A stretch of 64,000 nt of DNA from Candidatus Hebobacterum abditum (lineage in GTDB: Bacteria; Armatimonadota; Hebobacteria; Hebobacterales; Hebobacteraceae), in contig JALGXW010000027.1 of assembly GCA_029821875.1 (NCBI GenBank), positions 6,175 through 70,174 on the forward strand, in the 5' to 3' direction. Both the position numbers and the translations under genes were made by a program. The notes under the pieces were generated by a model. The model saw only the letters and a list, made by a program, of their open reading frames with translations. It was not told the DNA's origin and searched no databases. How positions within the stretch are numbered: the first letter of the stretch is position 1; each line of letters opens with the position of its first letter. Shown piece by piece: positions 939-15,132 of this stretch.

Positions 939-1463
939 TTCTCGTACCTCCCTCCATCGGTCTCTGCGGCACACGCAGAGCGCCAGGATGAGATTCACCC
1001 GTGGGACACGCTGTCCCTGTCAGACAGCGATGGGACACCGCTGACGGTCCTGCTGGTTTGCCTGCGACTCCCGGTCATTCTGCCATGTGCGGCCATTCGG
1101 CGGCGGCCCCGGGCATGGCCTTCTCCTGCCGAGGGTCCTGTTCCGATCAGGGGCCCGTAGCGAGAATGCGAGTGGCCCCAGGATACCGGATCTGGCACCG
1201 CGGTCGGCGGGGGCACGCGCGGCACGAAGGGGAACCGCCATCCACGCGGCAGAGGCACTCCGCCGTGTCAGGTACTGACAGCGCCATCTGGAGATGCTAG
1301 AATTGGGCTGGTTTCAGCTTGCTGAAGGCGAACTGCTGAGTTCGCATCAGACGAGCAAACCCGCGAATGGCGGTGCGCGAAGGGCAAGTGAGCCGAGATG
1401 TGGCATTGCGGTCTCGGATGCTCTACACTGTCATTGTGCGGGAGATCGACACTAGCGGACACG

Positions 1464-1504
1464 GGTGCCGGCGTAGCTCAGTTGGTAGAGCGGCTGATTT
1501 GTAA
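1464..1504 (+). repeat. 41-bp direct repeat (attL-like): 3 nt + first 38 nt of tRNA-Thr(TGT), identical to 7868-7908
   Basis: Exact 41/41 identity (ggtgccggcgtagctcagttggtagagcggctgatttgtaa). Identity ends at the anticodon-loop/3' anticodon-stem boundary, then the sequences diverge (acacca vs tcagta). Confidence 0.85.
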
Positions 1505-1774
1505 ACACCACTCGCGCGTGTTGCTCTTCCCCTCCATTTGCCGCACCATCTGTTCGCCTCCGTGACATCGTCCTGGGCGTACTGCCGAGGTCAAGCATGC
1601 CGGGCGATCCCAGATATACCTGGAATGTCTCTGAGCTGCCCACCGCGCGCGCTGGCCCTCTCAGAACCCGAAGCAGTCAGAGGAGTGGAGCAAACCTTGG
1701 CGCCCGTCAGGCCGGTCTCATCGTCGACTGAGAAGCACCCGGCGTCCCGGAGCCACTGAACGCGCATACAGTGA

Positions 1775-4700
1775 TCATCTCGCCTCCTGCGCTCGGCTCT
1801 GATCCCACCACTGTTGCCACTTGTCTGCATCGGTGCCGAAGTCCTGGCCGGTGATGGCGCGGAGGGCCTTCACCTCCGCGGTGATACTCCTTGGCGTGGG
1901 TTCGCCGCGGCCGAAGTAACGGTCTGCCTCGGCCACATCCTGCCGCAACGCCTCGATCAGCGCAGGCACGGCGGCCGGGTCCCTGAGTCGACCGATGGCT
2001 TCCGCCGCACCCACGCGAGAGGCAGCAAGGCAGTGGTCTGGATCCCGGAGGACGGTGAGGAGTAGCTTCACGGTACGGCGGTCGCCCACCTTGGCGAGCG
2101 CGACGGCGGCCGCGTGCCGGACCTGGCCGTCTGGATCATCCAGGAACGGTGCTATCGCCTCCGCGTTCTGCGGGTCGCCGATCTCGCCCAGCCCGGTAAC
2201 CGCCGCCAGACGGACTCCGACACTGTCGTCCTTCAGCAAGCGCACGAGCACCGGCGTCGCCCTGGGGTCCGCTATCTGGGCCAGCGCGCGGGCCGCGGCG
2301 CGGCGATTGCGCTGATCGGAGTCGCGCGTGAGAGGGAGGATGTCCGGCACCGCGGCTCGCGATCCTATCTCGCCGAGCGCCTTGGCGGCAGCGCGCCGCA
2401 GTCCCATGTCGCTGCTGTGGAGCAGCCCGAGTAGGAATGCCTCCGCGCGCGGGCCGCCGATCCGGCCGAGCGCCCATGTGGCATACCAGGCACCGTCGAA
2501 CTCCAGTCGCTCCAGTGTGCTGATGAGCGGCTCCACCGCCCGCGGATCGACTATCTCACCCAAGACGGATATGGCCGAAACTCGCACCTGCGGGTCGGTG
2601 TCGTGAAGCAGAATGTCGATCACCGGTTCGGTGGCCCGCCGATCCTTGATCCACAATAGGGGACCCAGCGCCTTCAGCCGGACCTTCGGATCCGGGTCGC
2701 TCAGTGCGGCCAGCAACGGCTCGAGAACAGCTTTGTTCTGGGCCTGACGCAGGCCGTCGCCGAGCGCATAGGAGACCCGCCCGCGGACGTACTCATCGGG
2801 GTCGTGGATCATGCCCAGCAGCGGCGTCACCGCGCGCGGATCGCCAATGAGACCGAGCGCCTCCGCAGCAGCGCCGCGGACACTCGGGTTGCTGTCCTTC
2901 AGGGCGGCCAGGAGACACTCCACCGCGTCGGCGGCATTCGGATGACCGAGTGCCCCGGCGGCCAGAGAACGCACCTCGGGGTCTTCGTCGGCGAGGAGAC
3001 CGGAGAGCACGCCAACGGTGCCTGTGCCGTCGAGGACACGGAGCGCGCTCGAGGACGCCCAACGCACCTCCGGGTGTTGATCCTTCAGGGCAGCGGCGAG
3101 TGGCTCAATGCCCTCAGGGTCGCCGAGCGAGCCAAGTGCCGTCGCCGCGGCGGCGCGGACCTCGTAGTCTGGGTCATGCTTGAGGATCGAAGCCAGGGGC
3201 GCGATGGTCTCCTTTCGCCCGAGCTCGCCAATCGCCCGGACCGCGGCGAGGCGAACGCGCCACACGCGGTCGTCCGCCGCTCTCAGGAGCGGATCCAGCC
3301 TCTCCGGCTCGCCGATCCTGCCCAGGGCACGTGCCGATGCCTCCCTCAGTTGCCAGTCGTCATCTCGAAGTGCCAGAAGCAGGTCAGGCACTGCCTTGTC
3401 GGACTGGAGGGCGCCCAGGGCTCTGGCCGCGGCGGCCCGAAGCGCCGGGTCGCCCTCGCGGAGGATCCCGAGGAGTAGCTCTTGGGCCCGTTGATCCCTG
3501 CTATCCCCCAGCGCTCTGATGGCTGCCCGTCGCACGAGCGCCTCGGCATCGCCCAACTGATGGATGAGGGCAGACACTGCCCCCGGGCCTCGCACCCGAC
3601 CGAGTTGCTGAGCGACGCCGAATCGGACGACGGGATCGGCATCGCGCGCGGCCTCTAGCAGGGAGTCCAGCAGGACCCGCTGGGCCTCCGTGCCAGCGAA
3701 CTCCGATCGGGGCCACATCCCCCAGAGCGCAGCATAGCGAACCGCGGGATCGGGATCGCGGAGTGCTGCGGCGCGGGCCCTCCACACCTCCGGCTCGTCG
3801 CGCATCGCGACAAGGTACATCGCCTGCCGGCGGACGGCCGGGTCCTCGTCACGAGCGAGCGGAAGGATCGCGTCCAGGTCGGCGTGCTGCTGCACGCGCG
3901 CGGGACCGCGAAGACCGTAGAGCGCCGCCGCGCGCACCGACGGTACCGGATCCTGCGTGAGTGCAACCAGTGGGGCCACGGCCATGCGCATCACGTTCTC
4001 GTCGTTCGTGTGGCAGAAGGCGGCTGCGCCGCGGGCTCGTACGAGGGCATCGGGTGACTGAAACCCGTCGATCAGCCGTCCGCCCACTTGCTCATCCCCA
4101 TAGTAGCCAAGCCCGAAGGCGGCGCGCCTCCCGACGCGGTCGTCCGCGTCTGCAAGGGCGGCGAAGAGAGCGTCCCTCGCTCGCGAATCGTCAACCAGCG
4201 GGCCGAGCCCTCCCACCGCGAGGAGTCGCACCTCCGGGTCTGGGTCGCGCCCCACCTCCAGGAGTGGCGCCACGGCCTTCGAATCGCGCAGCATGCCGAG
4301 CGTATAGGCCGCAGCCTGACGCACCGAGGGACCGTCATCTCCGAGAGACTCCTCGATCCCCTCTCCTGCCGCGCGGCGAACAGCATCTCCGGAGACCTCC
4401 GCCCTTGCGGGCTCCACCATGGCGGCCAACGCCAGCAGGGCTCCCCGGCGGACGCCCGGGTTCGAGTCGCCCAGTGCGGCCGAGAGCCCGGGAAGCGCCG
4501 GCTCCCCCAATCCCGCCAGCACGCGCACGGCCTGCTCGCCCACAGTCGTATCGCGGGACTGAGACGTCCACCACGGGTCCGGGTCGAGCCGGGCATACAT
4601 GGGGTCGCCCGGCAGCTCCGTATCGTCGGCGAGCATCCCTACGAGCGCAGGGACCGCTGGCGCGACACGGTCGCGGCTCGTCTGCAGGACCGTCGATGCT

Positions 4701-5869
4701 CGGAACCGCGCAAAGGCATCCGGGGAACGAAGCTCCGCCAGCGCCTGCTCCAGATCCGGAGTGAGGCCGTCCGCGCTCAGCTGCACAGCCGCGAAGGCCG
4801 CGGCAGAGAGCAGCAGCACCGCCGCCACCCCCAGCGCCAGCTTGCGGCTCAGCCGCCGCGCTCCATCAGCTCCAGTGATCGCCTCCACACGCTTGAGCAG
4901 TGTCGACTTCCGTTCGGCGACACCGACCGAGACCAATGCGAGCCGAGCATGCGCGCGCCTCGCGGCGGCGGTGAGTGAGCGAGCGTAGCTCGTCGGCTCG
5001 GCTCCCCGCTCCATGACCCAGGCGTCGCAGAGCTGTTCCCTCGCCAGGGAGATGTGCCGGCCAGCGAGCCAGACCACCGGGTGGAAGAACAGTGGTACTG
5101 CCAGCATCCGCTGCACCACGTTGACCAGGAAGTCGTGCCTGACGATGTGCGCCATCTCGTGTGCCAGGAGAGCGTGCAGGTCACTCTCGGAGAGAGACTC
5201 CAGCCACTCCTCCGGGAGCACGATCACCGGCCTCCGCCAACCGTACAGCAGCGGCGCGCCGGCCAGCTCGCTGCTGCGCAACTCCACACGTCTGGCCACG
5301 CCGGACGCGGCGCACAAGTCTTCCAGCATCGCCTGCAACTCGGCGTTCATGACTGGCGCACTGCTCTTGAGCATCATGCGTACCCACCGGTGCCCAAGCA
5401 GCAGCCGGAGCATGACCGCGCCGCAGCCTGTGAGCCAGAGGATGGCGACCAGGCCTGGCACCCCGAGCTGTTCCCAGAGAGACGGCGCCGGAGCCGGGAT
5501 GTCGGGCGAGTCAGGCGGAACCTTCGGGTTCGGAACGGCCGGTAGGCCCGCCACGTCCATCGTGGGCGTGGCGGTTAGCATCGGGGGCGCGATCAGCCGC
5601 GCCACCTGAGCGTCGGTCACGATCTCCGCCGCGGGACGGGGCACGGCGAGCACAACCGCGGCATCGTGGCGCGCCAGCATCACTCGAAGCGGCGTCAGCA
5701 CCAGCGGCGCGAGGAGCACGAACCACCACAGGGCATGCACCGCGTGCGGCTGACGCACGCGGGCAAGCCGCTGCAAGAGCCAGGCGAGCAACCCCAGCAG
5801 GACCAGCTGCCAGGTGATCGACCATCCGATTGCCGACCAGACACGGGATAGGAGGTGTACCAGCCACAT
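1775..5869 (-). CDS. BlaR1-type M56 family membrane metalloprotease fused to ~1000 aa of HEAT (PBS lyase-like) repeats, 1364 aa
   Basis: N-terminal hydrophobic helices (WSITWQLVLLGLLAWLL; LWWFVLLAPLVLTPL; VPGLVAILWLTGCGAVMLRLLLG), HEXXH zinc motif LAHEMAHIVRHD, a further TM (LALGVAAVLLLSAAAFAAVQL), then ~30 tandem ~31-aa repeats of the form DPDxxVRxxAAxALGxIGDPRAVxPLLxxL. Start codon sits 3 bp after the blaI-like stop. Confidence 0.8.
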   Translation of the reverse strand: MWLVHLLSRVWSAIGWSITWQLVLLGLLAWLLQRLARVRQPHAVHALWWFVLLAPLVLTPLRVMLARHDAAVVLAVPRPAAEIVTDAQVARLIAPPMLTATPTMDVAGLPAVPNPKVPPDSPDIPAPAPSLWEQLGVPGLVAILWLTGCGAVMLRLLLGHRWVRMMLKSSAPVMNAELQAMLEDLCAASGVARRVELRSSELAGAPLLYGWRRPVIVLPEEWLESLSESDLHALLAHEMAHIVRHDFLVNVVQRMLAVPLFFHPVVWLAGRHISLAREQLCDAWVMERGAEPTSYARSLTAAARRAHARLALVSVGVAERKSTLLKRVEAITGADGARRLSRKLALGVAAVLLLSAAAFAAVQLSADGLTPDLEQALAELRSPDAFARFRASTVLQTSRDRVAPAVPALVGMLADDTELPGDPMYARLDPDPWWTSQSRDTTVGEQAVRVLAGLGEPALPGLSAALGDSNPGVRRGALLALAAMVEPARAEVSGDAVRRAAGEGIEESLGDDGPSVRQAAAYTLGMLRDSKAVAPLLEVGRDPDPEVRLLAVGGLGPLVDDSRARDALFAALADADDRVGRRAAFGLGYYGDEQVGGRLIDGFQSPDALVRARGAAAFCHTNDENVMRMAVAPLVALTQDPVPSVRAAALYGLRGPARVQQHADLDAILPLARDEDPAVRRQAMYLVAMRDEPEVWRARAAALRDPDPAVRYAALWGMWPRSEFAGTEAQRVLLDSLLEAARDADPVVRFGVAQQLGRVRGPGAVSALIHQLGDAEALVRRAAIRALGDSRDQRAQELLLGILREGDPALRAAAARALGALQSDKAVPDLLLALRDDDWQLREASARALGRIGEPERLDPLLRAADDRVWRVRLAAVRAIGELGRKETIAPLASILKHDPDYEVRAAAATALGSLGDPEGIEPLAAALKDQHPEVRWASSSALRVLDGTGTVGVLSGLLADEDPEVRSLAAGALGHPNAADAVECLLAALKDSNPSVRGAAAEALGLIGDPRAVTPLLGMIHDPDEYVRGRVSYALGDGLRQAQNKAVLEPLLAALSDPDPKVRLKALGPLLWIKDRRATEPVIDILLHDTDPQVRVSAISVLGEIVDPRAVEPLISTLERLEFDGAWYATWALGRIGGPRAEAFLLGLLHSSDMGLRRAAAKALGEIGSRAAVPDILPLTRDSDQRNRRAAARALAQIADPRATPVLVRLLKDDSVGVRLAAVTGLGEIGDPQNAEAIAPFLDDPDGQVRHAAAVALAKVGDRRTVKLLLTVLRDPDHCLAASRVGAAEAIGRLRDPAAVPALIEALRQDVAEADRYFGRGEPTPRSITAEVKALRAITGQDFGTDADKWQQWWDQSRAQEAR

Positions 5870-5872
5870 GGC

Positions 5873-6265
5873 CTACTCCTTTCGCGACCTGCACTCGATG
5901 AGCTGCTGAACGCGAGAGAGCTCGGCCTCCGACAGCTTCTCGTCCTCGAGCAGGCGCATGAGCAGCGCCTCCGGCGAGCCCCGAAAGGTGGTCTGGATGA
6001 GGTCGCGCAGCAGGTTTCGCTTCACCTGTCGCTCCTTCACCTTTGCGTAGTATACGTGCGCCTTGCGGGTCTCGTCCCTGCCGACAAAACCCTTGTCTTG
6101 CATCACGCGGAGCATGGTGAGCACGGTGCTGTAGGCGGGAGTTGGCTTCACCGTCAGTGCCTCAAGCACGTCGCGCACGGTGGAAGGCCCTCGATCCCAG
6201 AGCACGTTCATGATCTGCATCTCCAGGTCCCCGAATCGCGGCCGCTCTCGCTTACGCATTCCCAT
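5873..6265 (-). CDS. BlaI/MecI/CopY family transcriptional repressor (penicillinase repressor fold), 130 aa
   Basis: Protein MGMRKRERPRFGDLEMQIMNVLWDRGPSTVRDVLEAL...AYSTVLTMLRVMQDKGFVGRDETRKAHVYYAKV matches the winged-helix N-terminus of BlaI/MecI/CopY. Immediately upstream of, and translationally coupled to, the M56 protease gene. Confidence 0.85.
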   Translation of the reverse strand: MGMRKRERPRFGDLEMQIMNVLWDRGPSTVRDVLEALTVKPTPAYSTVLTMLRVMQDKGFVGRDETRKAHVYYAKVKERQVKRNLLRDLIQTTFRGSPEALLMRLLEDEKLSEAELSRVQQLIECRSRKE

Positions 6266-6278
6266 CGCTTCCTGTATC

Positions 6279-6294
6279 TACTAATATATTAGCA
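6279..6294. promoter_or_regulatory. AT-rich perfect palindrome CTAATATATTAG (6281-6292; extended near-palindrome TACTAATATATTAGCA) 16 bp upstream of the blaI start, in the divergent blaI/int intergenic region; candidate BlaI operator
   Basis: Seen in sequence. Striking AT island in ~68% GC DNA. BlaI/MecI/CopY operators are AT-rich dyads (TACA/TGTA type). Confidence 0.35.
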
Positions 6295-6386
6295 TAAAGA
6301 GTACTACTCGTCCCTTCGGCTGTCAACAGGTGAACGAGTCTTGATCCCCGGCAGGCTCTTGACGGGCACCCCAACACTCGCTATTG

Positions 6387-6400
6387 TCGTACCACTGATT
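6387..6400 (+). repeat. 14-bp direct repeat TCGTACCACTGATT, copy 1 (upstream of integrase gene)
   Basis: Identical 14-mer at 7770-7783. Adjacent GCTGATT echoes (6411-6417). Confidence 0.4.
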
Positions 6401-6465
6401 GCGGCGTACTGCTGATTTCGGGCGGGATCGTCGCTGAGCACCAGACTCCGGGGCAGGCAGGTAGA

Positions 6466-7659
6466 ATGCCTAGTCCCACAGGGGGAGGCGGCACGACGCC
6501 GGGTCAGGACGATACAGTGGAGAGCCTCAACTGGTCGGCCTTGATAGGGCGCTTTCTGCAAGCGTGGGCCGCTGAGCATCCCGGGCTTCGACCTGCGACC
6601 ACGAAGCACTATCGCGAGCAGCTGGAGACGAGATTGGCCGCCTTCGCGGCGGAACGCGAGATACCGTCGGTTCGGGATTTCACGCGTGAGCATATGCGCG
6701 CGTTTGTTACCTGGCTCGATGAACACGTGACACGACGGGGACCGATGAGCCAGCGCGGGAAGCAGATGGCGTTGAACTCCGCGAAGATGCTACTGCGATG
6801 GTGCTACAGGGAGGGGCTGCTTGCCGAGGACATCAGCAGGAGCGTGAAGGGCTACCGGCTGAACGGGGGATGGAAGCCGCAGGCTACTCGCTCAGATGAC
6901 TTGGATGCTCTCCTCGCTGCCTTCAACGCGGGCACGCCGATGGGTATCCGCAACATAGCGACGATATACATGATGGCGCTGTGCGGGCTGCGCGTCTCTG
7001 AGCTCTGCGGCCTGAACGCTGCCGATCTGAACCCGTGCGAGGGCCTTGTGACCGTGAGATCCGAGACCAGGGGAGGCACTCGCGTCCGGAGTGTTGATCT
7101 ACCTTCCGTGATCCGCGATGGGAGGCTCATGACGCGACCGGAAGTGGCGGAGGTGTTGACGGCCTGGCTGGCTGTTCGCGCGCGTTTCTTCCCCGAACTT
7201 GAGGATGCTGATCCTCTGTTCGTAGCACTTGAGCCCGGGCGCGCCTCAGCTGGTAGCGAGAAACAGGAGCCAGATGCGGGGGGTGCAGGCCGACGGATGA
7301 CCGTTGATGGGGTACGCCTGATGTTGCGGCGGGCGGCGAAGCGAGCAGGCATCGACCCGAAGCGCGTCACGCCTAACCGGCTACGACACCACTTCGGCTT
7401 AAGCGCCACCGCTGCGGGAGTCAACCAGGCGGCTCTTATGGAAGCGATGGGGCACAAGTCTCCTCTGATGACGATGCGATATGCTGCGATCACGGACGAG
7501 GACCGCAGCCGGCAGCTTGCCCGAGCCGACATTGCCGGCGGAGTCAGATTCCCTGATGCCCAGCGTCACCGCCTGCCCACCCGCGAGGATGTGGAAGGGA
7601 CTCTTGAGGAAGAGGCAAGCCTGTCTGAGATAGCGCGGAAGCTGTTCGCCCGAGAGTAG
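6466..7659 (+). CDS. Tyrosine site-specific recombinase / phage-type integrase, 397 aa
   Basis: C-terminal catalytic motifs LRHHFGLSA, MGHKSPLMT, MRYAAI (R-H-R-Y family). N-terminal SAM-like core-binding region. Ends 210 bp from tRNA-Thr. Confidence 0.85.
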   Translation: MPSPTGGGGTTPGQDDTVESLNWSALIGRFLQAWAAEHPGLRPATTKHYREQLETRLAAFAAEREIPSVRDFTREHMRAFVTWLDEHVTRRGPMSQRGKQMALNSAKMLLRWCYREGLLAEDISRSVKGYRLNGGWKPQATRSDDLDALLAAFNAGTPMGIRNIATIYMMALCGLRVSELCGLNAADLNPCEGLVTVRSETRGGTRVRSVDLPSVIRDGRLMTRPEVAEVLTAWLAVRARFFPELEDADPLFVALEPGRASAGSEKQEPDAGGAGRRMTVDGVRLMLRRAAKRAGIDPKRVTPNRLRHHFGLSATAAGVNQAALMEAMGHKSPLMTMRYAAITDEDRSRQLARADIAGGVRFPDAQRHRLPTREDVEGTLEEEASLSEIARKLFARE

Positions 7660-7769
7660 GGTATGGGGCAGCCGACGAGCCCTGCTCACGGTGATGACAA
7701 GCCGATGTCAATCTGGTAGAATCGGCCCTGAATGCGAACAGCAGAATCGGTGTCGCGCACGTACGCTGA

Positions 7770-7783
7770 TCGTACCACTGATT
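7770..7783 (+). repeat. 14-bp direct repeat TCGTACCACTGATT, copy 2 (between integrase stop and tRNA-Thr)
   Basis: Identical to 6387-6400. Candidate arm-type integrase or regulator binding site. Confidence 0.4.
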
Positions 7784-7870
7784 ATTGGATGCTGGAGACG
7801 AAGAGCCGGGTGCCGTAGGTGAGAAAATCGGCTCCTAGCTCAGAAAAAGAGTGTTCTAGGCGAATTGCGG

Positions 7871-7946
7871 TGCCGGCGTAGCTCAGTTGGTAGAGCGGCT
7901 GATTTGTAATCAGTAGGTCGCGGGTTCGAATCCTGCCGCCGGCTCC
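7871..7946 (+). tRNA. tRNA-Thr (anticodon TGT)
   Basis: Cloverleaf folded by hand: acceptor GCCGGCG/CGCCGGC, D-arm GCTC-AGTTGGTA-GAGC, anticodon stem GCTGA/TCAGT with loop TTTGTAA, T-arm GCGGG-TTCGAAT-CCTGC, discriminator T, encoded CCA. Its first 38 nt are duplicated at 1467-1504. Confidence 0.85.
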
Positions 7947-8010
7947 ACTCTTCTCGTTCGCCGGAGGTGGATGAGAAGAGTGACCTCGAGCGAAGTCGAG
8001 GGGCCACGAC

Positions 8011-8349
8011 ATGACCGCCGGCAGCTCACGGCATTTGTACATGGTGCGCTGTTCTGACGGGTCTCTCTACACCGGCATTGCCAGAGACCCCGAGGAGCGG
8101 GCCCGCGTCCACAATCAGGGACAGGGGGCAGACTACACCGCTCGACGTCGCCCTGTAGTGCTGGTCTACTCAGAGCGACATGCACGCACGTCTGCCGCCC
8201 GCGGACGTGAGCTTCAGGTCAAAGCTTGGCGGGCAGAGAAGAAGGAGCATCTTGTGCGCGGGATTCCCTCAGCAGGCTCGGGACAAGCGAATCCTGCCGC
8301 CAGCTCCAGGTGGTTTGCACGCGGCGCGCCCGCGGCGTCACGGAGATAA
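8011..8349 (+). CDS. GIY-YIG nuclease family small protein (UvrC N-terminal-like), ~112 aa
   Basis: YMVRCSDGSLYTGIARDPEERARVHNQGQGADYTARRRPVVLVYSERHARTSAARGRELQVKAWRAEKKEHLV matches the GIY...YIG...R...E...N core. Lies 65 bp after tRNA-Thr. Confidence 0.65.
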   Translation: MTAGSSRHLYMVRCSDGSLYTGIARDPEERARVHNQGQGADYTARRRPVVLVYSERHARTSAARGRELQVKAWRAEKKEHLVRGIPSAGSGQANPAASSRWFARGAPAASRR

Positions 8350-10442
8350 TGCCCCGAAGGAAGGGCCTGCCCCTTGAATCCAGGCGGCGTCCGGCGCCGC
8401 CGCCAGAGACACCTGCCCCGCCGTCCCGCCTTACGCTGGCGGCCTCGGTGGGCGTGTTCGTGTTCCTCCTCCTCGTCTATCACGCGACCCTCATCCGCAC
8501 GGTCATAGATCAAGATAGCGGCGAGCTTGTCGCCGCCGCGCATGTACTCGGGATCGCGCACCCCACTGGCTATCCGCTCTGGGTGCTGCTGGGGCGCGTG
8601 TTCGACTTCCTTCCGGTGGGTGGGACGAGTGCCTACCGGGTGGCCCTGCTGTCCGCCGTGGCGTCCGCTGCGGCCGGCGGGATTCTGGCCGCGCTCGCGA
8701 TGCGGCTGGCGCGGAACGTCGCCGCGGGGGTGCTAGCCGGGGTGGCATTCGGGCTGTGGTTTCCAGTGTGGAGCCAGGCCGTGCGGGCGGAGGTATACGG
8801 GCTGACGGCGCTACTTGCGGCGCTCGCCCTCGCTGCGGCGATCCGATGGGACGCGGATCGCTCGCCCCGCGCGCTGGCGTGGCTCGCCCTCGCCGTCGGC
8901 TTCGTCTCGATGCACCATCGGACCGCGATGCTCGCGGTGGCTCCGGCCTTCGTCGTCGCAGCCCTACTGACCAGGCCGAGACGGACGCGGTGGTACTTGG
9001 CGGCCGCGGGGCTCCTCCTTGCACCGTTCGCCTTCTACTTGTACCTGCCCATTCGCGCGGCCGCGCGGCCGCCGGTCAACTGGACCGACCCAGTGACATG
9101 GGACCGGTTCTGGGAGCACGTGCTGGCAACCCAGTACACGGGGTACGCCTTCTCTCACACCGCTGGGCAGATGGCGGGTCTCTTCGAGCGGCTGCTCCCG
9201 GAGTTGCTCGTGCCCAGCGGGGCCTGGGCTACGGTGCTCGCCCTGATCGCGCTGCCGTTCGCGGCCTGGGGCTGGCGGCAGTGGCTCCGGCGACGGCCGA
9301 CCATCGCGGGCTCCCTGCTGGCGGGGGCGGCGCTGCTGGTGTACTGGGTCCTGCAGTGGGGCGAGACAACTGACCTGAAGGTCTTCTTCGGGCCGGCTGG
9401 AGCGATAGTCGCGCTCTGCGGCGCAGTCGGGATGGGGGCGGGCGGCAGGCACTTGGCCTCGCGAGCAGCGGCGATGGCGGCGGGCGTCGCGGTGTGCGTT
9501 GTCCTGCTCCTTGGCAACTGGGGGCGGGCCGATCTCAGCAATCTCTGGCAGCACCGCGACCGTTGGGTCGCGATGCTGTCATCGCTGGAGCCGGACGCCA
9601 TCTTCATCTCGGACAACGATGTCCCGAGCTTCGCGACGATGTACCTGCAGACCGTGGAGGAGATGCGACCGGACGTGACGCTCATTCGCGTCGTGCCGCT
9701 GCAGATGGACTGGTACGTCGGAACGCTGGCGGATGAGACGATACGGGAGCCGGTGCGCCGATCGTGGGAGGAGACGGAGGCGGCGCTGTCGGGCCTGGCG
9801 GCGAGGGAGCTCACGCGGTACAAGTGGGAGCGGACGGCAGTCTTCGCCTACCTCCTGGCCCAGCGGCTGGATAGACGTCGGCCCGTGTACGCGCTGCACG
9901 GGCCGAGGACCATAGAGTTGACGGGGCCGCCGTACTTCGTCGGGATCAGCGAGGATCTGGTGGCCCTTCGCGCCGCGCGCCCCGGGCCGGTACCGGCCGA
10001 AGCGGGGGAGGCGACGGCCGCGTTCCCAGGCGGCATTGCGCTGACCGAATTCGTACTGGGGCGGAGTGAGGTCGGCACCGGAGAGCTGATGGAGTTTGAG
10101 AGCCGCTGGCGAGTGCCGACACGAGTGCCGGGGCCGGCGCAGTTCGCCGTGCGGCTCGTGCCGCGCGACGTGGAGAAGGAGCGCTTCGCCGAGGAGCTGA
10201 CGCCGAACGGTCGCTTCACTCAGGCCTTCCCGCTGCTGGCGAGCCAATGGGGCCTCGCGCCCCTGGCGGAGGGCACTGAATTCGAGCAGGCGGGGGTGCT
10301 CATCGTGCCTACTAACTGCCCGCCCGGGCCGTGCGCAGTGGAGGTTGGCATCGGGCCGCTGTACAGCCCGGAGAACGTGGGCTGGGCCGAGGTCGCGCAG
10401 ATCGAAGTGGCGCCCCGGCCGCTGCCGTCGAATGCTCCCTAG
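8349..10442 (+). CDS. DUF2723-type polytopic membrane protein (PMT/TMEM260-like glycosyltransferase family)
   Basis: N-terminal TM then DQDSGELVAAAHVLGIAHPTGYPLW motif characteristic of DUF2723. Many TM helices, C-terminal soluble domain. Start chosen at ATG 8349 (MPRRKG...) rather than the ORF-track 8226, which overlaps the GIY-YIG gene. Confidence 0.6.
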   Translation: MPRRKGLPLESRRRPAPPPETPAPPSRLTLAASVGVFVFLLLVYHATLIRTVIDQDSGELVAAAHVLGIAHPTGYPLWVLLGRVFDFLPVGGTSAYRVALLSAVASAAAGGILAALAMRLARNVAAGVLAGVAFGLWFPVWSQAVRAEVYGLTALLAALALAAAIRWDADRSPRALAWLALAVGFVSMHHRTAMLAVAPAFVVAALLTRPRRTRWYLAAAGLLLAPFAFYLYLPIRAAARPPVNWTDPVTWDRFWEHVLATQYTGYAFSHTAGQMAGLFERLLPELLVPSGAWATVLALIALPFAAWGWRQWLRRRPTIAGSLLAGAALLVYWVLQWGETTDLKVFFGPAGAIVALCGAVGMGAGGRHLASRAAAMAAGVAVCVVLLLGNWGRADLSNLWQHRDRWVAMLSSLEPDAIFISDNDVPSFATMYLQTVEEMRPDVTLIRVVPLQMDWYVGTLADETIREPVRRSWEETEAALSGLAARELTRYKWERTAVFAYLLAQRLDRRRPVYALHGPRTIELTGPPYFVGISEDLVALRAARPGPVPAEAGEATAAFPGGIALTEFVLGRSEVGTGELMEFESRWRVPTRVPGPAQFAVRLVPRDVEKERFAEELTPNGRFTQAFPLLASQWGLAPLAEGTEFEQAGVLIVPTNCPPGPCAVEVGIGPLYSPENVGWAEVAQIEVAPRPLPSNAP

Positions 10443-10468
10443 TTGACACGGCAAAGCAACGTGCGACC

Positions 10469-10497
10469 TTGACGCTGGGGAGGCTGCGTGCTAGTAT
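10469..10497 (+). promoter_or_regulatory. Sigma70-type promoter TTGACG-N17-TAGTAT for the tRNA-Tyr/tRNA-Thr operon (a second TTGACA at 10443)
   Basis: Consensus-like -35/-10 hexamers with 17-nt spacer, ~40 bp upstream of tRNA-Tyr. Confidence 0.45.
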
Positions 10498-10538
10498 CGA
10501 CTCAGTCGCGGGTTCCATCTCGCGGCTGTCGTTGTCTC

Positions 10539-10624
10539 GGAGGGGTGCCCGAGCTGGACAAAGGGAGCAGACTGTAAATCTGCCGGCGAAGCCTACGCAG
10601 GTTCGAATCCTGCCCCCTCCACCA
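10539..10624 (+). tRNA. tRNA-Tyr (anticodon GTA), long variable arm
   Basis: Acceptor GGAGGGG/CCCCTCC, anticodon stem-loop GCAGA-CTGTAAA-TCTGC, variable arm CGGCGAAGCCTAC, T-arm GCAGG-TTCGAAT-CCTGC, CCA encoded. Confidence 0.85.
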
Positions 10625-10658
10625 GGCTTCTATGGTATAGAGCGACAGGCGCGCCGAA

Positions 10659-10734
10659 GCCCACATAGCTCAGGTGGCAGAGCGTATCCTTGGTAAGGAT
10701 AAGGTCCCCGGTTCGAATCCGGGTGTGGGCTCCA
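10659..10734 (+). tRNA. tRNA-Thr (anticodon GGT)
   Basis: Acceptor GCCCACA/TGTGGGC, D-arm GCTC-AGGTGGCA-GAGC, anticodon stem-loop TATCC-TTGGTAA-GGATA, T-arm CCCGG-TTCGAAT-CCGGG, CCA encoded. Confidence 0.85.
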
Positions 10735-10740
10735 GACCTG

Positions 10741-10763
10741 AAGCGGGAGCACTGCTCCCGCTT
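10741..10763. terminator. Perfect hairpin AAGCGGGAGC-ACTG-CTCCCGCTT between the tRNA operon (+) and nagA (-); candidate bidirectional terminator
   Basis: 9-10 bp GC-rich stem, 4-nt loop. No strong U-tract. Confidence 0.4.
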
Positions 10764-10783
10764 ACGCCATCTGTCCGTGCGTA

Positions 10784-11935
10784 TCAGGCGCGGTACACGA
10801 CCTGTCCCATCACTATCGTGCTTACAACGTCGAGATCCTCGTCGAGGACGACGATGTCGGCGTCCTTGCCGGGCTCGAGGCTTCCCTTGCGGTCGGCCAC
10901 TCCGATTGAGCGCGCTGGCGTGAGGGTCGCCATCTGGATCGCCTCTGGCAGCGAGGCGATGGTGAACTCGGCGATGTTCCGAACCGCCTGGTCGAGCGTG
11001 AGCGCGCTCCCGGCAAGCGTGCCGTCGGGCAGGCGGACCGCGCCTTCCTTGACCACGACCTTCTGACCGCCCAGCTCGTACTCGCCATCCGGCATGCCGG
11101 CCCCACTGATGGCGTCGGTGATGGCCACGGCTCGCTCGGGACCCTTCAGGCGAACGACCATATCCACGATCGCCGGATGAAGGTGAACTCCGTCGGCGAT
11201 GAACTCGGCGTAGATCTCGTCGAGCAGGAGCACGCCGCCGACGGTGCCGGGCTTGCGGTGATGCAGTCCCTCCATCTGGTTGAAGGTGTGGGTGGCGTGG
11301 TTGAGGCCGTGCTGCACGGCCTCGGCGAGTTCCTCGTAGGTAGCGGATGAGTGGCCGACGACAACGGCCGCGCCCTGGGCCCGAGCGAACGGGATGAGGT
11401 CCCTGTTCTCCTCGATCTCCGGGGCGAGGGTGACAAGCTTGATGTTGCCGAGAGAGAACAGATCCCTGTAGTCGATGGCGGCCGCGTGGGTGATGTGCTG
11501 CTCCGGTTGCGCGCCCTTCTTCTCTGCGTCGATGCAGGGCCCTTCGAGGTGGACGCCGAGGGGCTGCGCGCCGCCCTCGATCGGGTTCTCCATGCAGTCC
11601 TTCACGGCCCGCACGGAAGCCATGATGTCTTCGGTCGGCTGAGTCAGAGTGGTGGGGCAGAACGAGGTGACACCGTGGTTGGCGAAGAACTTCGCCATTC
11701 CCTCAATGGCGTCCCGCGTGGCATCCATCGTATCGTGGCCGGCGCTCCCGTGGACGTGGACGTCGACATAGCCCGGCGCAACGATACGTCCTCTGGCGTC
11801 TATCGTCTCGTCGATGTCGTCTCGCGCAAGGCCGGGGCCGACCGCGAAGATCTTACCGTCTTCGATGATGACATCAGCCTGCTCGAAGACCTCGAGCGGG
11901 GTGAGAACCATACCGGCTCTGATTGCCATTCTCAC
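10784..11935 (-). CDS. nagA: N-acetylglucosamine-6-phosphate deacetylase
   Basis: Amidohydrolase metal-binding signature VDVHVHGSAGHD near the N-terminus. Full-length (~380 aa) similarity pattern of NagA (GVHLEGP, VVVGHS, ITDAISGAG). Confidence 0.85.
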   Translation of the reverse strand: MRMAIRAGMVLTPLEVFEQADVIIEDGKIFAVGPGLARDDIDETIDARGRIVAPGYVDVHVHGSAGHDTMDATRDAIEGMAKFFANHGVTSFCPTTLTQPTEDIMASVRAVKDCMENPIEGGAQPLGVHLEGPCIDAEKKGAQPEQHITHAAAIDYRDLFSLGNIKLVTLAPEIEENRDLIPFARAQGAAVVVGHSSATYEELAEAVQHGLNHATHTFNQMEGLHHRKPGTVGGVLLLDEIYAEFIADGVHLHPAIVDMVVRLKGPERAVAITDAISGAGMPDGEYELGGQKVVVKEGAVRLPDGTLAGSALTLDQAVRNIAEFTIASLPEAIQMATLTPARSIGVADRKGSLEPGKDADIVVLDEDLDVVSTIVMGQVVYRA

Positions 11936-12040: not shown

Positions 12041-12667
12041 CTAGGTGTCCTCTGGCAGCGACAACTCCTCATAGCCGTTCCAGTGGCCGCTTTCATACGG
12101 ACTGTCGGGATGAGGAAACTCCTCTTCCAGCACGAGTCTCTGCTCCCCGGACACAATGTCACTCGCCTTGAGTAGCGCAAGCATCTTCCCCTGGTCCTTG
12201 CATCGCTGCACAGACGGTGCTCGGTCTGCAACTGTGTCATTGTCCAATAGCACTGCCAGACCTACGAATTCGCCGTCAAACCGATGTAGATCATCGAGAG
12301 TAAACTCCAGATGTGATCCGAAGTTAACCACATGATCCACGATCACTGCGCGCTTCTTGCGCGGCGTCCTGGGTGCCCACTCCCGTTGCCGGGCCCGTTC
12401 TGGAAGGTATGCTGTCCAGGGCTTCTGCATATGCTGAGCAACAAGGGCTGAGAAGACCATCGGATCCGCCCATCCGCACGCCATGATAGTGTCAAAATCT
12501 AGACCGAACGCAGAGCCAACCATGTCGCTCAGGGCATGGACAGCTCGGTGCAGCATCGCGGGGTCATCGTACAAGCGCCAGGAGTCCCAAACAAGAAGCC
12601 TGCCCGTTGGATGGGCAAGACAGGTCTTCCGAATGTCCGGCAGCAAGGTGTCGAGCTCAGACGGCAT
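12041..12667 (-). CDS. Hypothetical protein with type I phosphoribosyltransferase (PRTase)-like fold, 208 aa
   Basis: PRPP-binding-loop-like motif RAVIVDHVVNFGSHLEFTL preceded by a hood-like region. No confident family assignment. 11-bp overlap with the upstream gene suggests translational coupling. Confidence 0.45.
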   Translation of the reverse strand: MPSELDTLLPDIRKTCLAHPTGRLLVWDSWRLYDDPAMLHRAVHALSDMVGSAFGLDFDTIMACGWADPMVFSALVAQHMQKPWTAYLPERARQREWAPRTPRKKRAVIVDHVVNFGSHLEFTLDDLHRFDGEFVGLAVLLDNDTVADRAPSVQRCKDQGKMLALLKASDIVSGEQRLVLEEEFPHPDSPYESGHWNGYEELSLPEDT

Positions 12668-13727
12668 GACGGGCTCCTCTCGGCCGGGGGAGCACCAGAG
12701 CGTCTAGCTGAGCCGATGCCTCCAGCACTAGCCTGGCCGCCCTATCGACACGTCCCTCCGCGACTGCGTGAGCCAGGAGGTCCCACTCGAGGGCAGTGCG
12801 GAGAGCGACGATGTCGTTGGCGTTGTATGCACGTGCGGAGGCTGACCGTCCGCGTCTAGTCGTGATCAAGCGGTAGGTGAAGAGAAGGTCGCTTTCATCA
12901 GGCAGATAGCGTGGATACAGATTGGGAGGGCTGCCACGGAAGTCTGTGCCTCCGCCGAAGCGTGAGACGAAAGCTCCCGCTGCGGAGCGAAACGCGGCCG
13001 CGTCTCCGGTCCTTCGGCCAAGGTCATGCAGAGCGTCAGCGAACTCACGGCGCGTGTGGGACGGCGACCCTGACGACCGTCCATCATCTGCCTCAGCGGT
13101 CCAGTATCTAAGGTGGTAGAGGACGTTCGTCGAGGCCCTGATGAAAGCGGAGAACTCTCCGCGGCGGAGGAACTGGATCCCCTCTTGGCTCCAGTTCTCG
13201 AGGGGCGGCGCCTCCTCCGCGTGCTGGAACTGGCGCCAGCGTTCTCCGTAGATCGGCTCTGTCTCGACGCGGAAGAGGCCGAACGTAGTGTATGCCAGGT
13301 CGAGGCGGAACTCAGACTCAGCAGCAACATCGGGATAGTGGCCCAACCAGGCTCGCAGGTGGGCTGCTGCGCCAGCGACGCGACCCCATGCCTTGCCTAA
13401 CTCGATCACGCGCTTCATCCCACTCGGTGCTCGACCGGCCCGCGCGAGCTTCCGGCGCGCGAACCAAACGAAGGCTGAGAGCGCCACCCGGCCAATGACC
13501 AGACGCTCAATGGATGCCGATAGGACTGTTGCGAGGAATAGCCCGAGGATAGCGCCCCCGAACAGCGCCCATGGCATACCCACGTCGGCGCCATTACTGG
13601 CGCGCGCCACGTAGCGATAGGCCAGAGCAAAGAGAACAGGAGAGAACAACAACATAATCACAAGCGCCAGACAGGGACGGAAGGCGCCGAGAAGGTAGCA
13701 TAGACCGTGTCTCTGTCTAGTTATCAT
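12657..13727 (-). CDS. Hypothetical protein, two N-terminal TM helices + ~280-aa soluble domain of unknown function, 356 aa
   Basis: ORF with hydrophobic N-terminus (LALVIMLLFSPVLFALAY; ALFGGAILGLFLATVL). Composition is protein-like. No recognisable motif. Confidence 0.4.
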   Translation of the reverse strand: MITRQRHGLCYLLGAFRPCLALVIMLLFSPVLFALAYRYVARASNGADVGMPWALFGGAILGLFLATVLSASIERLVIGRVALSAFVWFARRKLARAGRAPSGMKRVIELGKAWGRVAGAAAHLRAWLGHYPDVAAESEFRLDLAYTTFGLFRVETEPIYGERWRQFQHAEEAPPLENWSQEGIQFLRRGEFSAFIRASTNVLYHLRYWTAEADDGRSSGSPSHTRREFADALHDLGRRTGDAAAFRSAAGAFVSRFGGGTDFRGSPPNLYPRYLPDESDLLFTYRLITTRRGRSASARAYNANDIVALRTALEWDLLAHAVAEGRVDRAARLVLEASAQLDALVLPRPRGARHAV

Positions 13728-13761
13728 CCATTAACTCGCCTTGACTGCGAACCTGACCCTG

Positions 13762-14304
13762 TCAGCGTGGGCGCCGAGCCACCATGCAAAGGCATGGCCC
13801 GTAGCTGAGCATGAGAGAGAGGATCACGATGGCCGCAAAGACCATGGGTGAGACGGACCAGCCAGGCAGGTCCGGCCCACTGGGTACGATCCCCGCCGCC
13901 ACGCTTAGAAGAAGTAAGTGCCATACGAACACGCCAAACGTGACGAGCCCCTCTCGGACGTCGACGACGCCACGGAACGCGGGCATCTTCGGATAGACCA
14001 TGCTCTGATCTGTGGTCTGCCACACTCCCCCTCCGGCCACGTAGCGCCCGGCGAACACGGTCGCGATCGCCCAGACATCGAACGCGAGCGCGCAGCAGAT
14101 CACTTCCACGTGTAGCGCGGCCCAGGACGGCGTAGGAAACAACGGGGACCCCCACAAGATGGCGTACTTGATGCACGGCACCACAAGCGGCAGAAGAAGG
14201 GCAACGAGTGCTGTGTATGGCTTGATCGCGTTCCGAAGTATCGCCAGTATCGCCGCGAATGCGGTCCGGATACTGCTCCTGCCGCCCGCTGGCCCGTGGC
14301 GCAA
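13762..14304 (-). CDS. Hypothetical polytopic membrane protein (TTG start), 180 aa
   Basis: Several hydrophobic helices. Own promoter-like element upstream. In-frame stop at 14350-14352 limits N-terminal extension. Confidence 0.35.
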   Translation of the reverse strand: MRHGPAGGRSSIRTAFAAILAILRNAIKPYTALVALLLPLVVPCIKYAILWGSPLFPTPSWAALHVEVICCALAFDVWAIATVFAGRYVAGGGVWQTTDQSMVYPKMPAFRGVVDVREGLVTFGVFVWHLLLLSVAAGIVPSGPDLPGWSVSPMVFAAIVILSLMLSYGPCLCMVARRPR

Positions 14305-14408
14305 TGTATCTGCTCCAATGGCGCGCCGAGCCGGCGGCTCGGCGCAGCACTATTCGCACTATTCCAGGAACAGCTACGGCCAGCGACATGGTGCGCTGGC
14401 TGACGCGG

Positions 14409-14437
14409 AAGATAGCACATTGCCTCGCCGCCGTCAA
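14409..14437 (-). promoter_or_regulatory. Sigma70-like promoter on minus strand (TTGACG-N17-TATCTT) upstream of the 13762-14304 membrane protein gene
   Basis: Read on the reverse complement: cTTGACGgcggcgaggcaatgtgcTATCTTccg. Confidence 0.3.
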
Positions 14438-15132
14438 GCCTGCGGCAGGACTCAGGCAGGGCTTAAGTAGTAGAATACCACTCGTTTGCTGTACAGCAGA
14501 GGCTGCGCCTGCCTGGGAGCAGGGCGCCGACGGCGCGAAGGAAAGGCGGGAAGACCCTGGGGGAGGGGTATTCCTGATCAGGATGCTAGGAGACCAGTAG
14601 AAGGTAGGACCGCCATCTGGCCATACTGTGCCAGGCCCAAAGGACGCGTTGCACTCTTCGGGCCCGGCCGGAAGACGCGAACATGTCTGTGGTTCTCTTC
14701 CTGGCCACGGTGTTAGGTCCCCGGCCGCGAGGTGTCTCACCATTGTCCCTAGGTGCCACGCCATAGCCCACTCCCGTGCCAACGATAGCACAGTCAGGCA
14801 GCTTGTCCAGACCGATTGACCGACCATGTGATCGAAAGACAGCGAAGAGGAAACGGCCCGCCGCGGGACGCGCGGGCTTGGCAACGATGGCATCGGCAGA
14901 GAGACTCCCCTCTGGCAGACTAATACCACAGAAAGCAGGTCTGCTCGCATTTCGCCCAGCAGAGTCGTCCTTCGGTCACGAGGGAACATGGTCGCGGTGC
15001 TGCGGCGCGCTGACAGGAGACCAGCGCGCAGATGGCTATGCCCACAGGATGTGGACTCGCCGCGCTGCGGGCACTCCTGACGGACATATCGTGCGGCATA
15101 TAAGGTCGAGGCACGACTGCCGCACAAAGTCG

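Follow-up and report, generated by a model that had tools for sequence, protein, structure and literature searches.

The 64-kb stretch analysed here (hereafter the window) spans positions 6,175-70,174 of contig JALGXW010000027.1 in assembly GCA_029821875.1, from Candidatus Hebobacterum abditum, an uncultured sediment bacterium of the phylum Armatimonadota. It contains a 41-bp direct repeat whose downstream copy forms the 5' half of a tRNA-Thr(UGU) gene, and between the two copies lie three genes only, encoding a Phage_integrase protein, a Penicillinase_R repressor and an M56 protease fused to HEAT repeats. Coordinates without a label refer to the window, and labels of the form L001 denote the related loci that we compared with it. 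A preliminary description of the locus had named blaI/blaR1-like genes as the only cargo beside the integrase, and the gene content agrees.

The two copies of the repeat (1464-1504 and 7869-7909) match at 41 of 41 positions, with identity ending sharply on both sides; the preliminary description had the identity right and placed the second copy one base too early, at 7868-7908. Each copy comprises 3 leader nucleotides (nt) followed by nt 1-38 of tRNA-Thr(UGU), so that the upstream copy stops at the last anticodon-loop base, as had been noticed before. With up to three mismatches allowed, the 38 nt from the tRNA have exactly two matches in the 64 kb and none in 100 shuffles. The window has a single intact tRNA-Thr(tgt) at 7872-7947 (ARAGORN; 75 bits with Rfam); the upstream copy (1467-1504), when extended, reaches 18.7 bits against a threshold of 29 and is therefore not a tRNA. 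We interpret 1505-7868 together with one 41-bp core as an integrative element that entered tRNA-Thr(UGU) by tyrosine-recombinase site-specific recombination, a reading to which we assign a probability of roughly 0.8.

The integrase gene ends 212 bp before the tRNA. Its product matches PF00589 at 81.3 bits (cut-off 27.1), consists of SAM-like and catalytic domains with none of the lambda-type arm-binding kind, and stays well below the equivalog cut-offs of the XerC and XerD NCBIfam models (80-87 bits versus 279-335). The catalytic residues are R176, N304, R307, H308, H330 and Y339, with N304 in place of the histidine of the HxxR box (box II); the R-H-R-Y constellation reported earlier is thus R-N-R-Y. 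That column holds H, N or R across the family, and the tetrad histidine is said to tolerate substitution in Cre. The preliminary description had proposed an alignment with XerC/D and P4-type integrases to confirm the catalytic tyrosine; an alignment of 14 sequences pairs Y339 with XerD Y279 and finds the catalytic tyrosine and both arginines invariant.

States of the tRNA site in related genomes

Relatives of the site were sought with the TMEM260-like protein encoded in the right flank, which yielded three related loci. L002, a contig of a Candidatus Hebobacteria metagenome-assembled genome (MAG; class Hebobacteria, phylum Armatimonadota), aligns with window 1273-1507 over its positions 2080-2314 (89% identity) and with window 7869-11904 over 2271-6305 (90% identity). 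These left-flank and right-flank alignments overlap exactly on the core, and L002 is therefore an uninterrupted site in a related genome: the left flank runs through the intact tRNA into the right flank without a break, the two being joined at the core, and the window has 6,405 extra bases. In L003, whose TMEM260-like protein is 86% identical, a different integrase (51% identical) occupies the same tRNA, within an element of sister subfamily A that carries Gabija (GajA 4e-65, GajB 6e-84) and a NERD/SEC-C protein. L001, an NCBI MAG contig that is 99% identical to the window and begins inside the HEAT repeats (window 4315), is from the same population and provides no independent evidence. Three close relatives thus present three states of one tRNA site, and the empty site in L002, with its flanks overlapping on the core, bears out the site-specific integration into tRNA-Thr(UGU) that had been proposed from the window.

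Because tRNA fragments do arise in other ways, the repeat might in principle be a local duplication of half a tRNA unrelated to the neighbouring recombinase. We consider this bare possibility extremely improbable: a fragment of nt 1-38 that ends at the same point is found alongside integrases of the family in dozens of independent contigs, and what L002 is missing is exactly the sequence between the repeats.

The two copies of the repeat lie behind two different promoters (Table 1). Behind the chromosomal one now lie the leader (1304-1463) and the displaced 5' half of the tRNA, and 1273-1463 is 89% identical to the sequence directly 5' of the intact tRNA in L002. Between integrase and tRNA, the sequence TGACA-17-TGnTAnAAT is invariant and at the same position in 11 of 11 aligned elements of subfamily B, the subfamily that contains the window integrase; the element therefore brings a tRNA promoter. 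In L005, L009 and L010, D-loop nt 20 differs between fragment and tRNA, and in L005 and L009 the fragment has A, as in the empty site of L002. This is the pattern expected if the fragment stems from the host, the 5' half of the tRNA from the element, and the crossover took place 3' of nt 20. Donation of both the 5' half and the promoter by the element, suggested in the preliminary description, is supported by the nt 20 differences, with the empty-site base in the fragments of L005 and L009, and by the promoter conserved in all 11 B elements.

The attP site of the element would accordingly comprise tRNA nt 1-38 behind the element's own promoter. Since repeat identity ends at nt 38 and given the nt 20 pattern, the exchange falls between nt 21 and 38, and the crossover would most likely lie within the anticodon loop, 7 nt enclosed by the CTGA/TCAG dyad of the stem. 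Integration would leave a chimeric tRNA, with a 5' half and promoter supplied by the element and a 3' half supplied by the chromosome. The original 5' half would be stranded at the far end as a dead fragment, downstream of the chromosomal promoter that it has kept. The attP junction of an excised circle would read GCGAATTGC-GGTGCCGGCGTAGCTCAGTTGGTAGAGCGGCTGATTTGTAA-ACACCACTCGCG (7860-7909 joined to 1505 onward), and the empty attB would read AGCGGACACG-[core]-TCAGTAGGTCGCGG (1463 through the core to 7910 onward).

The element also contains a set of short direct repeats. CGTACYRCYGA occurs four times in the 64 kb (1578, 6388, 6405 and 7771; 0.21 expected), always on the plus strand and always within the element. 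B units in general have two copies 17-18 bp apart after the integrase promoter and one between integrase and core, with a strict match in just one of the two upstream copies in L005 and L010. The integrase promoter and its repeat pair also precede the integrase gene in most B units examined, and the P-side columns CGTAC..C.GAT are invariant in the 11-element B alignment. The 13-mer carries CTACTGATT, the reverse complement of tRNA nt 37-45, and it therefore looks like an extra core half-site. The copy at 1578 is a putative integrase-binding site, and the CGTACYRCYGA(TT) repeats, which lie on both sides of the core and over the integrase promoter, are probably accessory integrase-binding and autoregulatory sites. 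Local alignment of 1505-1775 with the core-to-integrase spacer of units that lack cargo did no better than shuffles, and we therefore claim as shared parts only the repeat at 1578 and the integrase-proximal block of promoter and repeats.

Table 1. Positions of the tRNA gene, attachment cores, genes, promoters and repeats in the window.
Feature	Position	Strand	Description
Chromosomal tRNA promoter	1275..1303	+	CTGACA-17-TAGAAT with TG; promoter scan
attL core	1464..1504	+	3 nt plus displaced chromosomal tRNA-Thr nt 1-38; non-functional as tRNA
P' side repeat	1578..1588	+	CGTACTGCCGA; resembles core half-site; 74 bp inside attL
blaR1-like signal-transducing metalloprotease	1775..5869	-	1364 aa; Pfam Peptidase_M56 and HEAT_2
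blaI-like winged-helix repressor	5873..6265	-	130 aa; Pfam Penicillinase_R
blaI promoter region	6279..6326	-	-35 TTGACA (6321-6326), -10 TACTCT (6298-6303), 17-bp spacing; read from sequence
Integrase promoter	6359..6417 (including repeats)	+	TTGACG-17-TATTGT; promoter scan
13-nt direct repeats directly after integrase promoter	6388-6400; 6405-6417	+	CGTACCACTGATT; CGTACTGCTGATT; repeat scans
Xer-like tyrosine integrase, subfamily B	6466..7659	+	397 aa; Pfam Phage_integrase
Element-borne tRNA promoter	7694..7722	+	ATGACA-17-TAGAAT with TG; promoter scan
P side repeats	7759..7783	+	CGTACGCTGAT then CGTACCACTGATT; 86-110 bp before core
attR core	7869..7909	+	element-derived 41-bp copy; 5' half of working tRNA
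Chimeric intact tRNA-Thr(UGU)	7872..7947	+	nt 1-38 from element, nt 39-76 chromosomal

The chromosomal tRNA leader (1273-1463; L002 2080-2270) aligns with the leader in A-type elements, including a promoter common to both. The leader may have been copied from the chromosome into A-type elements, or what looks native may itself be a relic of one. Common to the two is a dyad, GACCnGCTGA-N7-TCAGCnGGTC (CTGA-GTTCGCA-TCAG at 1326-1350 of the window), that mimics both the anticodon stem-loop and the right core half-site; it could function as a site for the integrase or as a signal for RNA processing. Rfam searches of the whole window, and a permissive run on 800-1800, returned tRNAs only and no known RNA in the 165-nt leader.

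The left flank is a minus-strand hydrolase gene (Pfam AAT, related to acyl-CoA:6-APA acyltransferases) that continues past the window start; to the right follow genes for a GIY-YIG protein, the TMEM260-like glycosyltransferase, tRNA-Tyr and tRNA-Thr(GGU). A 21-nt copy of the tRNA-Thr(UGU) 3' end (nt 56-76) lies at 8288-8308, 341 bp downstream of the tRNA, with almost nothing in between except the 112-aa GIY-YIG gene (8011-8349). The 3'-end copy also occurs in L002 (2690-2710), L003 (8502-8522) and L024 (11754-11770), and L007 has a similar 22-nt copy 42 nt past its tRNA, without the GIY-YIG gene. Such copies may be relics of a classical 3'-side integration or of insertion of the GIY-YIG gene. 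Further right, on the minus strand, 12041-15127 holds three successive open reading frames (ORFs) that carry a MAG annotation without a Pfam match and whose GC content at third codon positions (GC3; 0.58-0.68) is below that of most window genes; this is possibly another acquired segment.

Two further observations concern the site in relatives. The contigs of L007, L008, L016 and L021 start less than 100 bp upstream of the tRNA fragment, which suggests assembly breaks caused by population heterogeneity at the site. A 61-nt stretch at window 1660-1720 is 79% identical to L002 829-889; it lies just 3' of blaR1 in the window and just 3' of an extracytoplasmic-function (ECF)-sigma-like gene by the empty site in L002. 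It is single in the window, absent from the other 93 loci and has no significant fold.

An integrase family dedicated to one tRNA

Among 5.8 billion proteins the window integrase has 16 close relatives (51-100% identity), the next in line being XerD-like proteins at 26-28%. A metagenome scan returned 150 relatives, from which 80 loci were kept, and the comparison covered 94 loci, in which 92 integrase genes were located. They form two subfamilies, B (58-83% identical to the window integrase) and A (45-53%). An intact tRNA-Thr(tgt) or its nt 1-38 fragment lies downstream on the same strand of 60 of the 92 integrases; for a further 28 the sequence available downstream is shorter than 3 kb, and 4 show no core within at least 3 kb downstream. 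The fragment ends at nt 38, or in a few loci at nt 37 or 39.

Subfamily B is uniform in its arrangement. The distance from integrase to core is 188-228 bp in 12 of 12 cases, all 12 integrase genes are intact, and the ratio of nonsynonymous to synonymous substitution (dN/dS) is 0.11-0.26 at dS 0.2-1.8 (0.11-0.20 for the window integrase against 11 relatives); the C-terminal tail ...SLSEIARKLF is conserved in B members. In seven contigs (L005, L007, L009, L010, L015, L020 and L021) an upstream fragment lies about 200-265 bp before the integrase gene, giving seven complete fragment-integrase-tRNA units of 1,648-1,726 bp with the integrase as sole gene. The island in the window is therefore not the 'minimal' one it had been taken for, since related units with the integrase alone are as small as 1.65 kb; it is, however, alone among the B units found in carrying cargo. 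The fragments match tRNA nt 1-38 at 95-100% identity, next to a non-coding spacer that averages 55% column identity; either every integration is recent or the fragment is kept as a recombination site.

B units also occur in arrays. L017 holds two different B units in tandem, 87% identical to each other; we had considered it as a circular form and rejected this, because the integrase copies are just 87% identical. In the four A-fragment-B-tRNA arrays (L005, L009, L010 and L015) the B unit is always the tRNA-proximal one. In L019 and L022 a B integrase lies by the tRNA with no fragment up to 10 kb upstream, where the genes look chromosomal and, in L022, include an insertion sequence (IS).

A-type elements carry larger cargo: Gabija (GajA/GajB), a CBASS-type E1-E2 protein (1.6e-200), a PifA-like KAP NTPase, a PIN_12 protein and NTase/HEPN genes, at L003 221-7786, L033 4428-6260, L030 11130-14723, L006 5409-8527 and L025 11207-12259. 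In the Hebobacteria lineage, defence islands have a hot spot on the 5' side of tRNA-Thr(UGU). No core was found within 10 kb upstream of A-type integrases in the 14 loci with that much sequence. L071 and L086 lie on one 56-kb contig (Ga0315277_10000609), where the distance from the fragment (L071 7791) to the tRNA (L086 14403), about 48 kb, implies a very large element or an array. Two family integrases tens of kb apart on one contig occur both there and in L030/L032 (Ga0315289_10000434).

A BlaI/BlaR1-like operon as cargo

The 4.7-kb cargo operon has the core-proximal repeat on one side and the integrase promoter on the other. GC3 periodicity favours one gene over the whole of 1775-5869, and its product scores 111 bits for Peptidase_M56 (cut-off 31) and 463 bits for HEAT_2. 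Hydropathy gives four transmembrane (TM) helices (14-32, 45-65, 140-158 and 344-366), with HEMAH at residue 237, between TM3 and TM4, in a loop that has 25 K/R and is hence cytoplasmic. The protein thus has the BlaR1/MecR1 layout: four TM helices and an M56 domain whose HExxH lies in a cytoplasmic loop. Residues 370-1364, about 1,000 aa, have at least 15 HEAT_2 matches and are predicted to lie outside the membrane; this protein has no penicillin-binding (class D beta-lactamase-like) domain, the HEAT repeats standing in its place. Its NCBIfam scores are 84 against a cut-off of 400 (blaR1_generic) and 24 against 1200 (sensor_BlaR1). The repressor matches Penicillinase_R at 105.6 bits (cut-off 22.6), with all NCBIfam BlaI/MecI/CopY matches under their equivalog cut-offs, and 3 bp separate its stop codon from the blaR1-like start, so that both genes probably belong to one operon.

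The blaI promoter went unreported by the promoter scan because its -10 box is weak. Across the expected blaI transcription start lies the palindrome TGCTAATATATTAGTA (6279-6294), which is unique in the window and a putative BlaI operator; a 64%-identical homologue in L011 has the near-identical TGCTATTATATTAGTA at its promoter. By analogy with BlaI/BlaR1, the repressor would bind the palindrome at its own promoter and so autoregulate the operon, and the membrane-bound M56 zinc protease would cleave BlaI once the outward HEAT domain detects a signal other than a beta-lactam. On this analogy the cargo would be a self-contained proteolytic signalling pair.

The position of the pair next to the integrase invites the thought that it is the induction switch of the element, with a signal at the HEAT domain leading to repressor cleavage, integrase expression and excision, as with ImmR/ImmA of ICEBs1. 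A repressor and a repressor-cleaving metalloprotease beside an integrase gene is indeed the ICEBs1 arrangement, and blaI and the integrase gene lie side by side in divergent orientation, their -35 boxes 32 bp apart. The only BlaI-type palindrome, however, sits at the blaI start, 64 bp upstream of the integrase -35 box and with no second copy, and units without blaI and blaR1 have the same integrase promoter and CGTAC repeats; we therefore see no evidence of BlaI control of the integrase. Together with the lack of BlaI or M56 in the other 93 loci, save L001 and the BlaR1-homologue loci L011-L014, this makes a switch role highly improbable.

The core-to-integrase spacer is 4,961 bp in the window versus about 200-265 bp in units without cargo, and its only part demonstrably homologous to theirs is the integrase-proximal 6378-6420 (84% identical to L007). 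The closest homologues of the BlaR1 N-terminal domain (47-64%) come from ordinary chromosomal contexts or a 3.5-kb contig, with no integrase nearby, and the window has no BlaI/BlaR1 paralogues. PADLOC, run on the element proteins, gave nothing beyond generic HEAT-repeat matches for BlaR1, and BlaI and the integrase had no match; the window cargo matches no known anti-phage defence system. Composition, which the preliminary description had proposed as a check, gave no sign of foreign origin and proved uninformative: GC content is 0.668 in the element versus 0.652 in the window, and codon-usage scores of -1.05 (blaR1) and -1.14 (integrase) fall within the host range of -1.06 +/- 0.18.

Mobility, precedents and meaning

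Several points weigh against the integrative-element reading. The empty site was seen in one relative only, a MAG at about 89% identity; the box-II histidine is replaced by asparagine; and the codon usage of the element matches that of the host. Entry of the cargo has left no trace, with no flanking repeats of 8 nt or more in the form of a target-site duplication or inverted ends. Pattern and protein searches of a viral contig collection returned no excised circle or attP junction, no integrase relatives and no attL/attP-type patterns. The non-coding parts hold no convincing excisionase-like small ORF and the element has no transfer genes, so its spread between cells is unexplained. We infer, rather than observe, the current mobility of the element, binding of the integrase to the repeats, binding of BlaI to the palindrome and cleavage of BlaI by BlaR1.

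Some of these points would equally describe an immobilised relic that integrated once and lost the ability to excise, its integrase retained for resolving or rearranging the hot-spot array and blaI/blaR1 now chromosomal genes. The His-to-Asn change in the active site, the missing excisionase and transfer genes, the host-like codon usage, and L019 and L022, with their chromosomal-looking surroundings and the IS of L022, all point that way. Yet the asparagine is common to several otherwise conserved family members at the box-II position, the repeat is exact (41/41), and fragments in relatives are conserved despite dS of 0.2-1.8 in the adjoining gene. Relatives of 86-89% identity display three site states, L017 combines two different B units (87%), and the tRNA-proximal place of B in 4 of 4 arrays is consistent with B as the last arrival. 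We regard the relic as unlikely and retain site-specific integration of a mobile element as the preferred reading. A bolder extension of it, which we hold only tentatively and would not bet on, is that the 1.65-kb B units are autonomous, actively moving elements that take over transcription of tRNA-Thr(UGU), arrive last in defence-island arrays and can capture genes, the window being the first observed cargo capture.

Islands that target tRNA genes normally replace the 3' part of the gene, and Williams reportedly described in 2002 the anticodon loop as a sublocation of such integration. The element resembles these islands in having its integrase beside the intact tRNA, in repeats formed by a piece of the tRNA with its end in the anticodon loop, in the restoration of tRNA function by the copy that the element brings and in tandem arrays at one tRNA. 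It differs in that the 5' half and the promoter are replaced, in that the integrase lies upstream of the tRNA and in the type of integrase, which is Xer-like without an arm-binding domain. Recombination into the 5' part of tRNA genes has been called 'considerably less frequent', in a description that credits the bacterial precedent to Zhao & Williams 2002 (PMC6563490). As far as that citing description goes, the reversed polarity is the same, the element having to bring the 5' end of its target, whereas the integrase family, the tRNA-Thr(UGU) target and the Armatimonadota host set the present case apart, and here a whole family, with about 150 metagenomic relatives, has the reversed polarity. 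For the dusA integrases, too, the target is the 5' end of a gene, in their case a protein-coding one (PMC4482086).

Defence islands of Escherichia coli that consist of an integrase and cargo with no other mobility genes have been proposed to lead a satellite lifestyle (Hochhauser et al. 2023, PMC10121019). They share with the present element the integrase with small cargo, the lack of other mobility genes and the unexplained mode of transfer, and sister A-type elements likewise bear defence systems; here, by contrast, the window cargo is a signalling pair and B units usually have no cargo. Tycheposons of Prochlorococcus accrete in tandem at tRNA genes with partial tRNAs between units (bioRxiv 10.1101/2020.12.28.424599); these too are tyrosine-recombinase elements that pile up at few tRNA genes and build variable islands, but the elements described here have no helicase/primase replication module, and host, integrase family and polarity differ. 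The cargo operon is laid out like BlaI/BlaR1 and MecI/MecR1 of staphylococci and Bacillus, with the repressor followed in one operon by a four-TM M56 protease that has a C-terminal outside sensor, and with a palindromic operator (putative in the window) at its own promoter. It differs in its HEAT sensor of about 1,000 aa without a penicillin-binding domain, in the absence of a beta-lactamase or penicillin-binding-protein target gene from the window and in scores far under the NCBIfam cut-offs.

The suggestion that the element belongs to no described class was thus too strong, since integrase-plus-cargo islands (PMC10121019) and, in the description cited above, 5'-side integration (PMC6563490) are known. 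A limited literature search, which is not proof of novelty, found no description of the integrase family or of cargo-less units with both att sites. What is new is a group of Xer-like integrases from Armatimonadota that specialise in the 5' half of tRNA-Thr(UGU), with a bare 1.65-kb form and one member that carries a BlaI/BlaR1-HEAT operon. The island finders Islander and TIGER have a minimum size of 2 kb; the 1.65-kb units fall below it and so would go unreported by both, and similar elements under 2 kb may be overlooked elsewhere by standard island finders.

A poorly known phylum, through its class Ca. Hebobacteria, thus yields a whole integrase family of the rare 5'-side polarity. One tRNA site is found empty, with a bare integrase unit, with a unit that carries cargo and with larger defence elements (one of about 48 kb), a comparison well suited to studying cargo acquisition by small islands and the spread of integrase-only elements. 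If the B units do move autonomously, few self-contained bacterial integrative elements with a tyrosine recombinase would be smaller, and the signalling pair of the window would be placed where sister elements carry anti-phage systems. The BlaR1-like protein with its giant HEAT sensor is a mobile example among many uncharacterised M56 signalling pairs that do not respond to beta-lactams.

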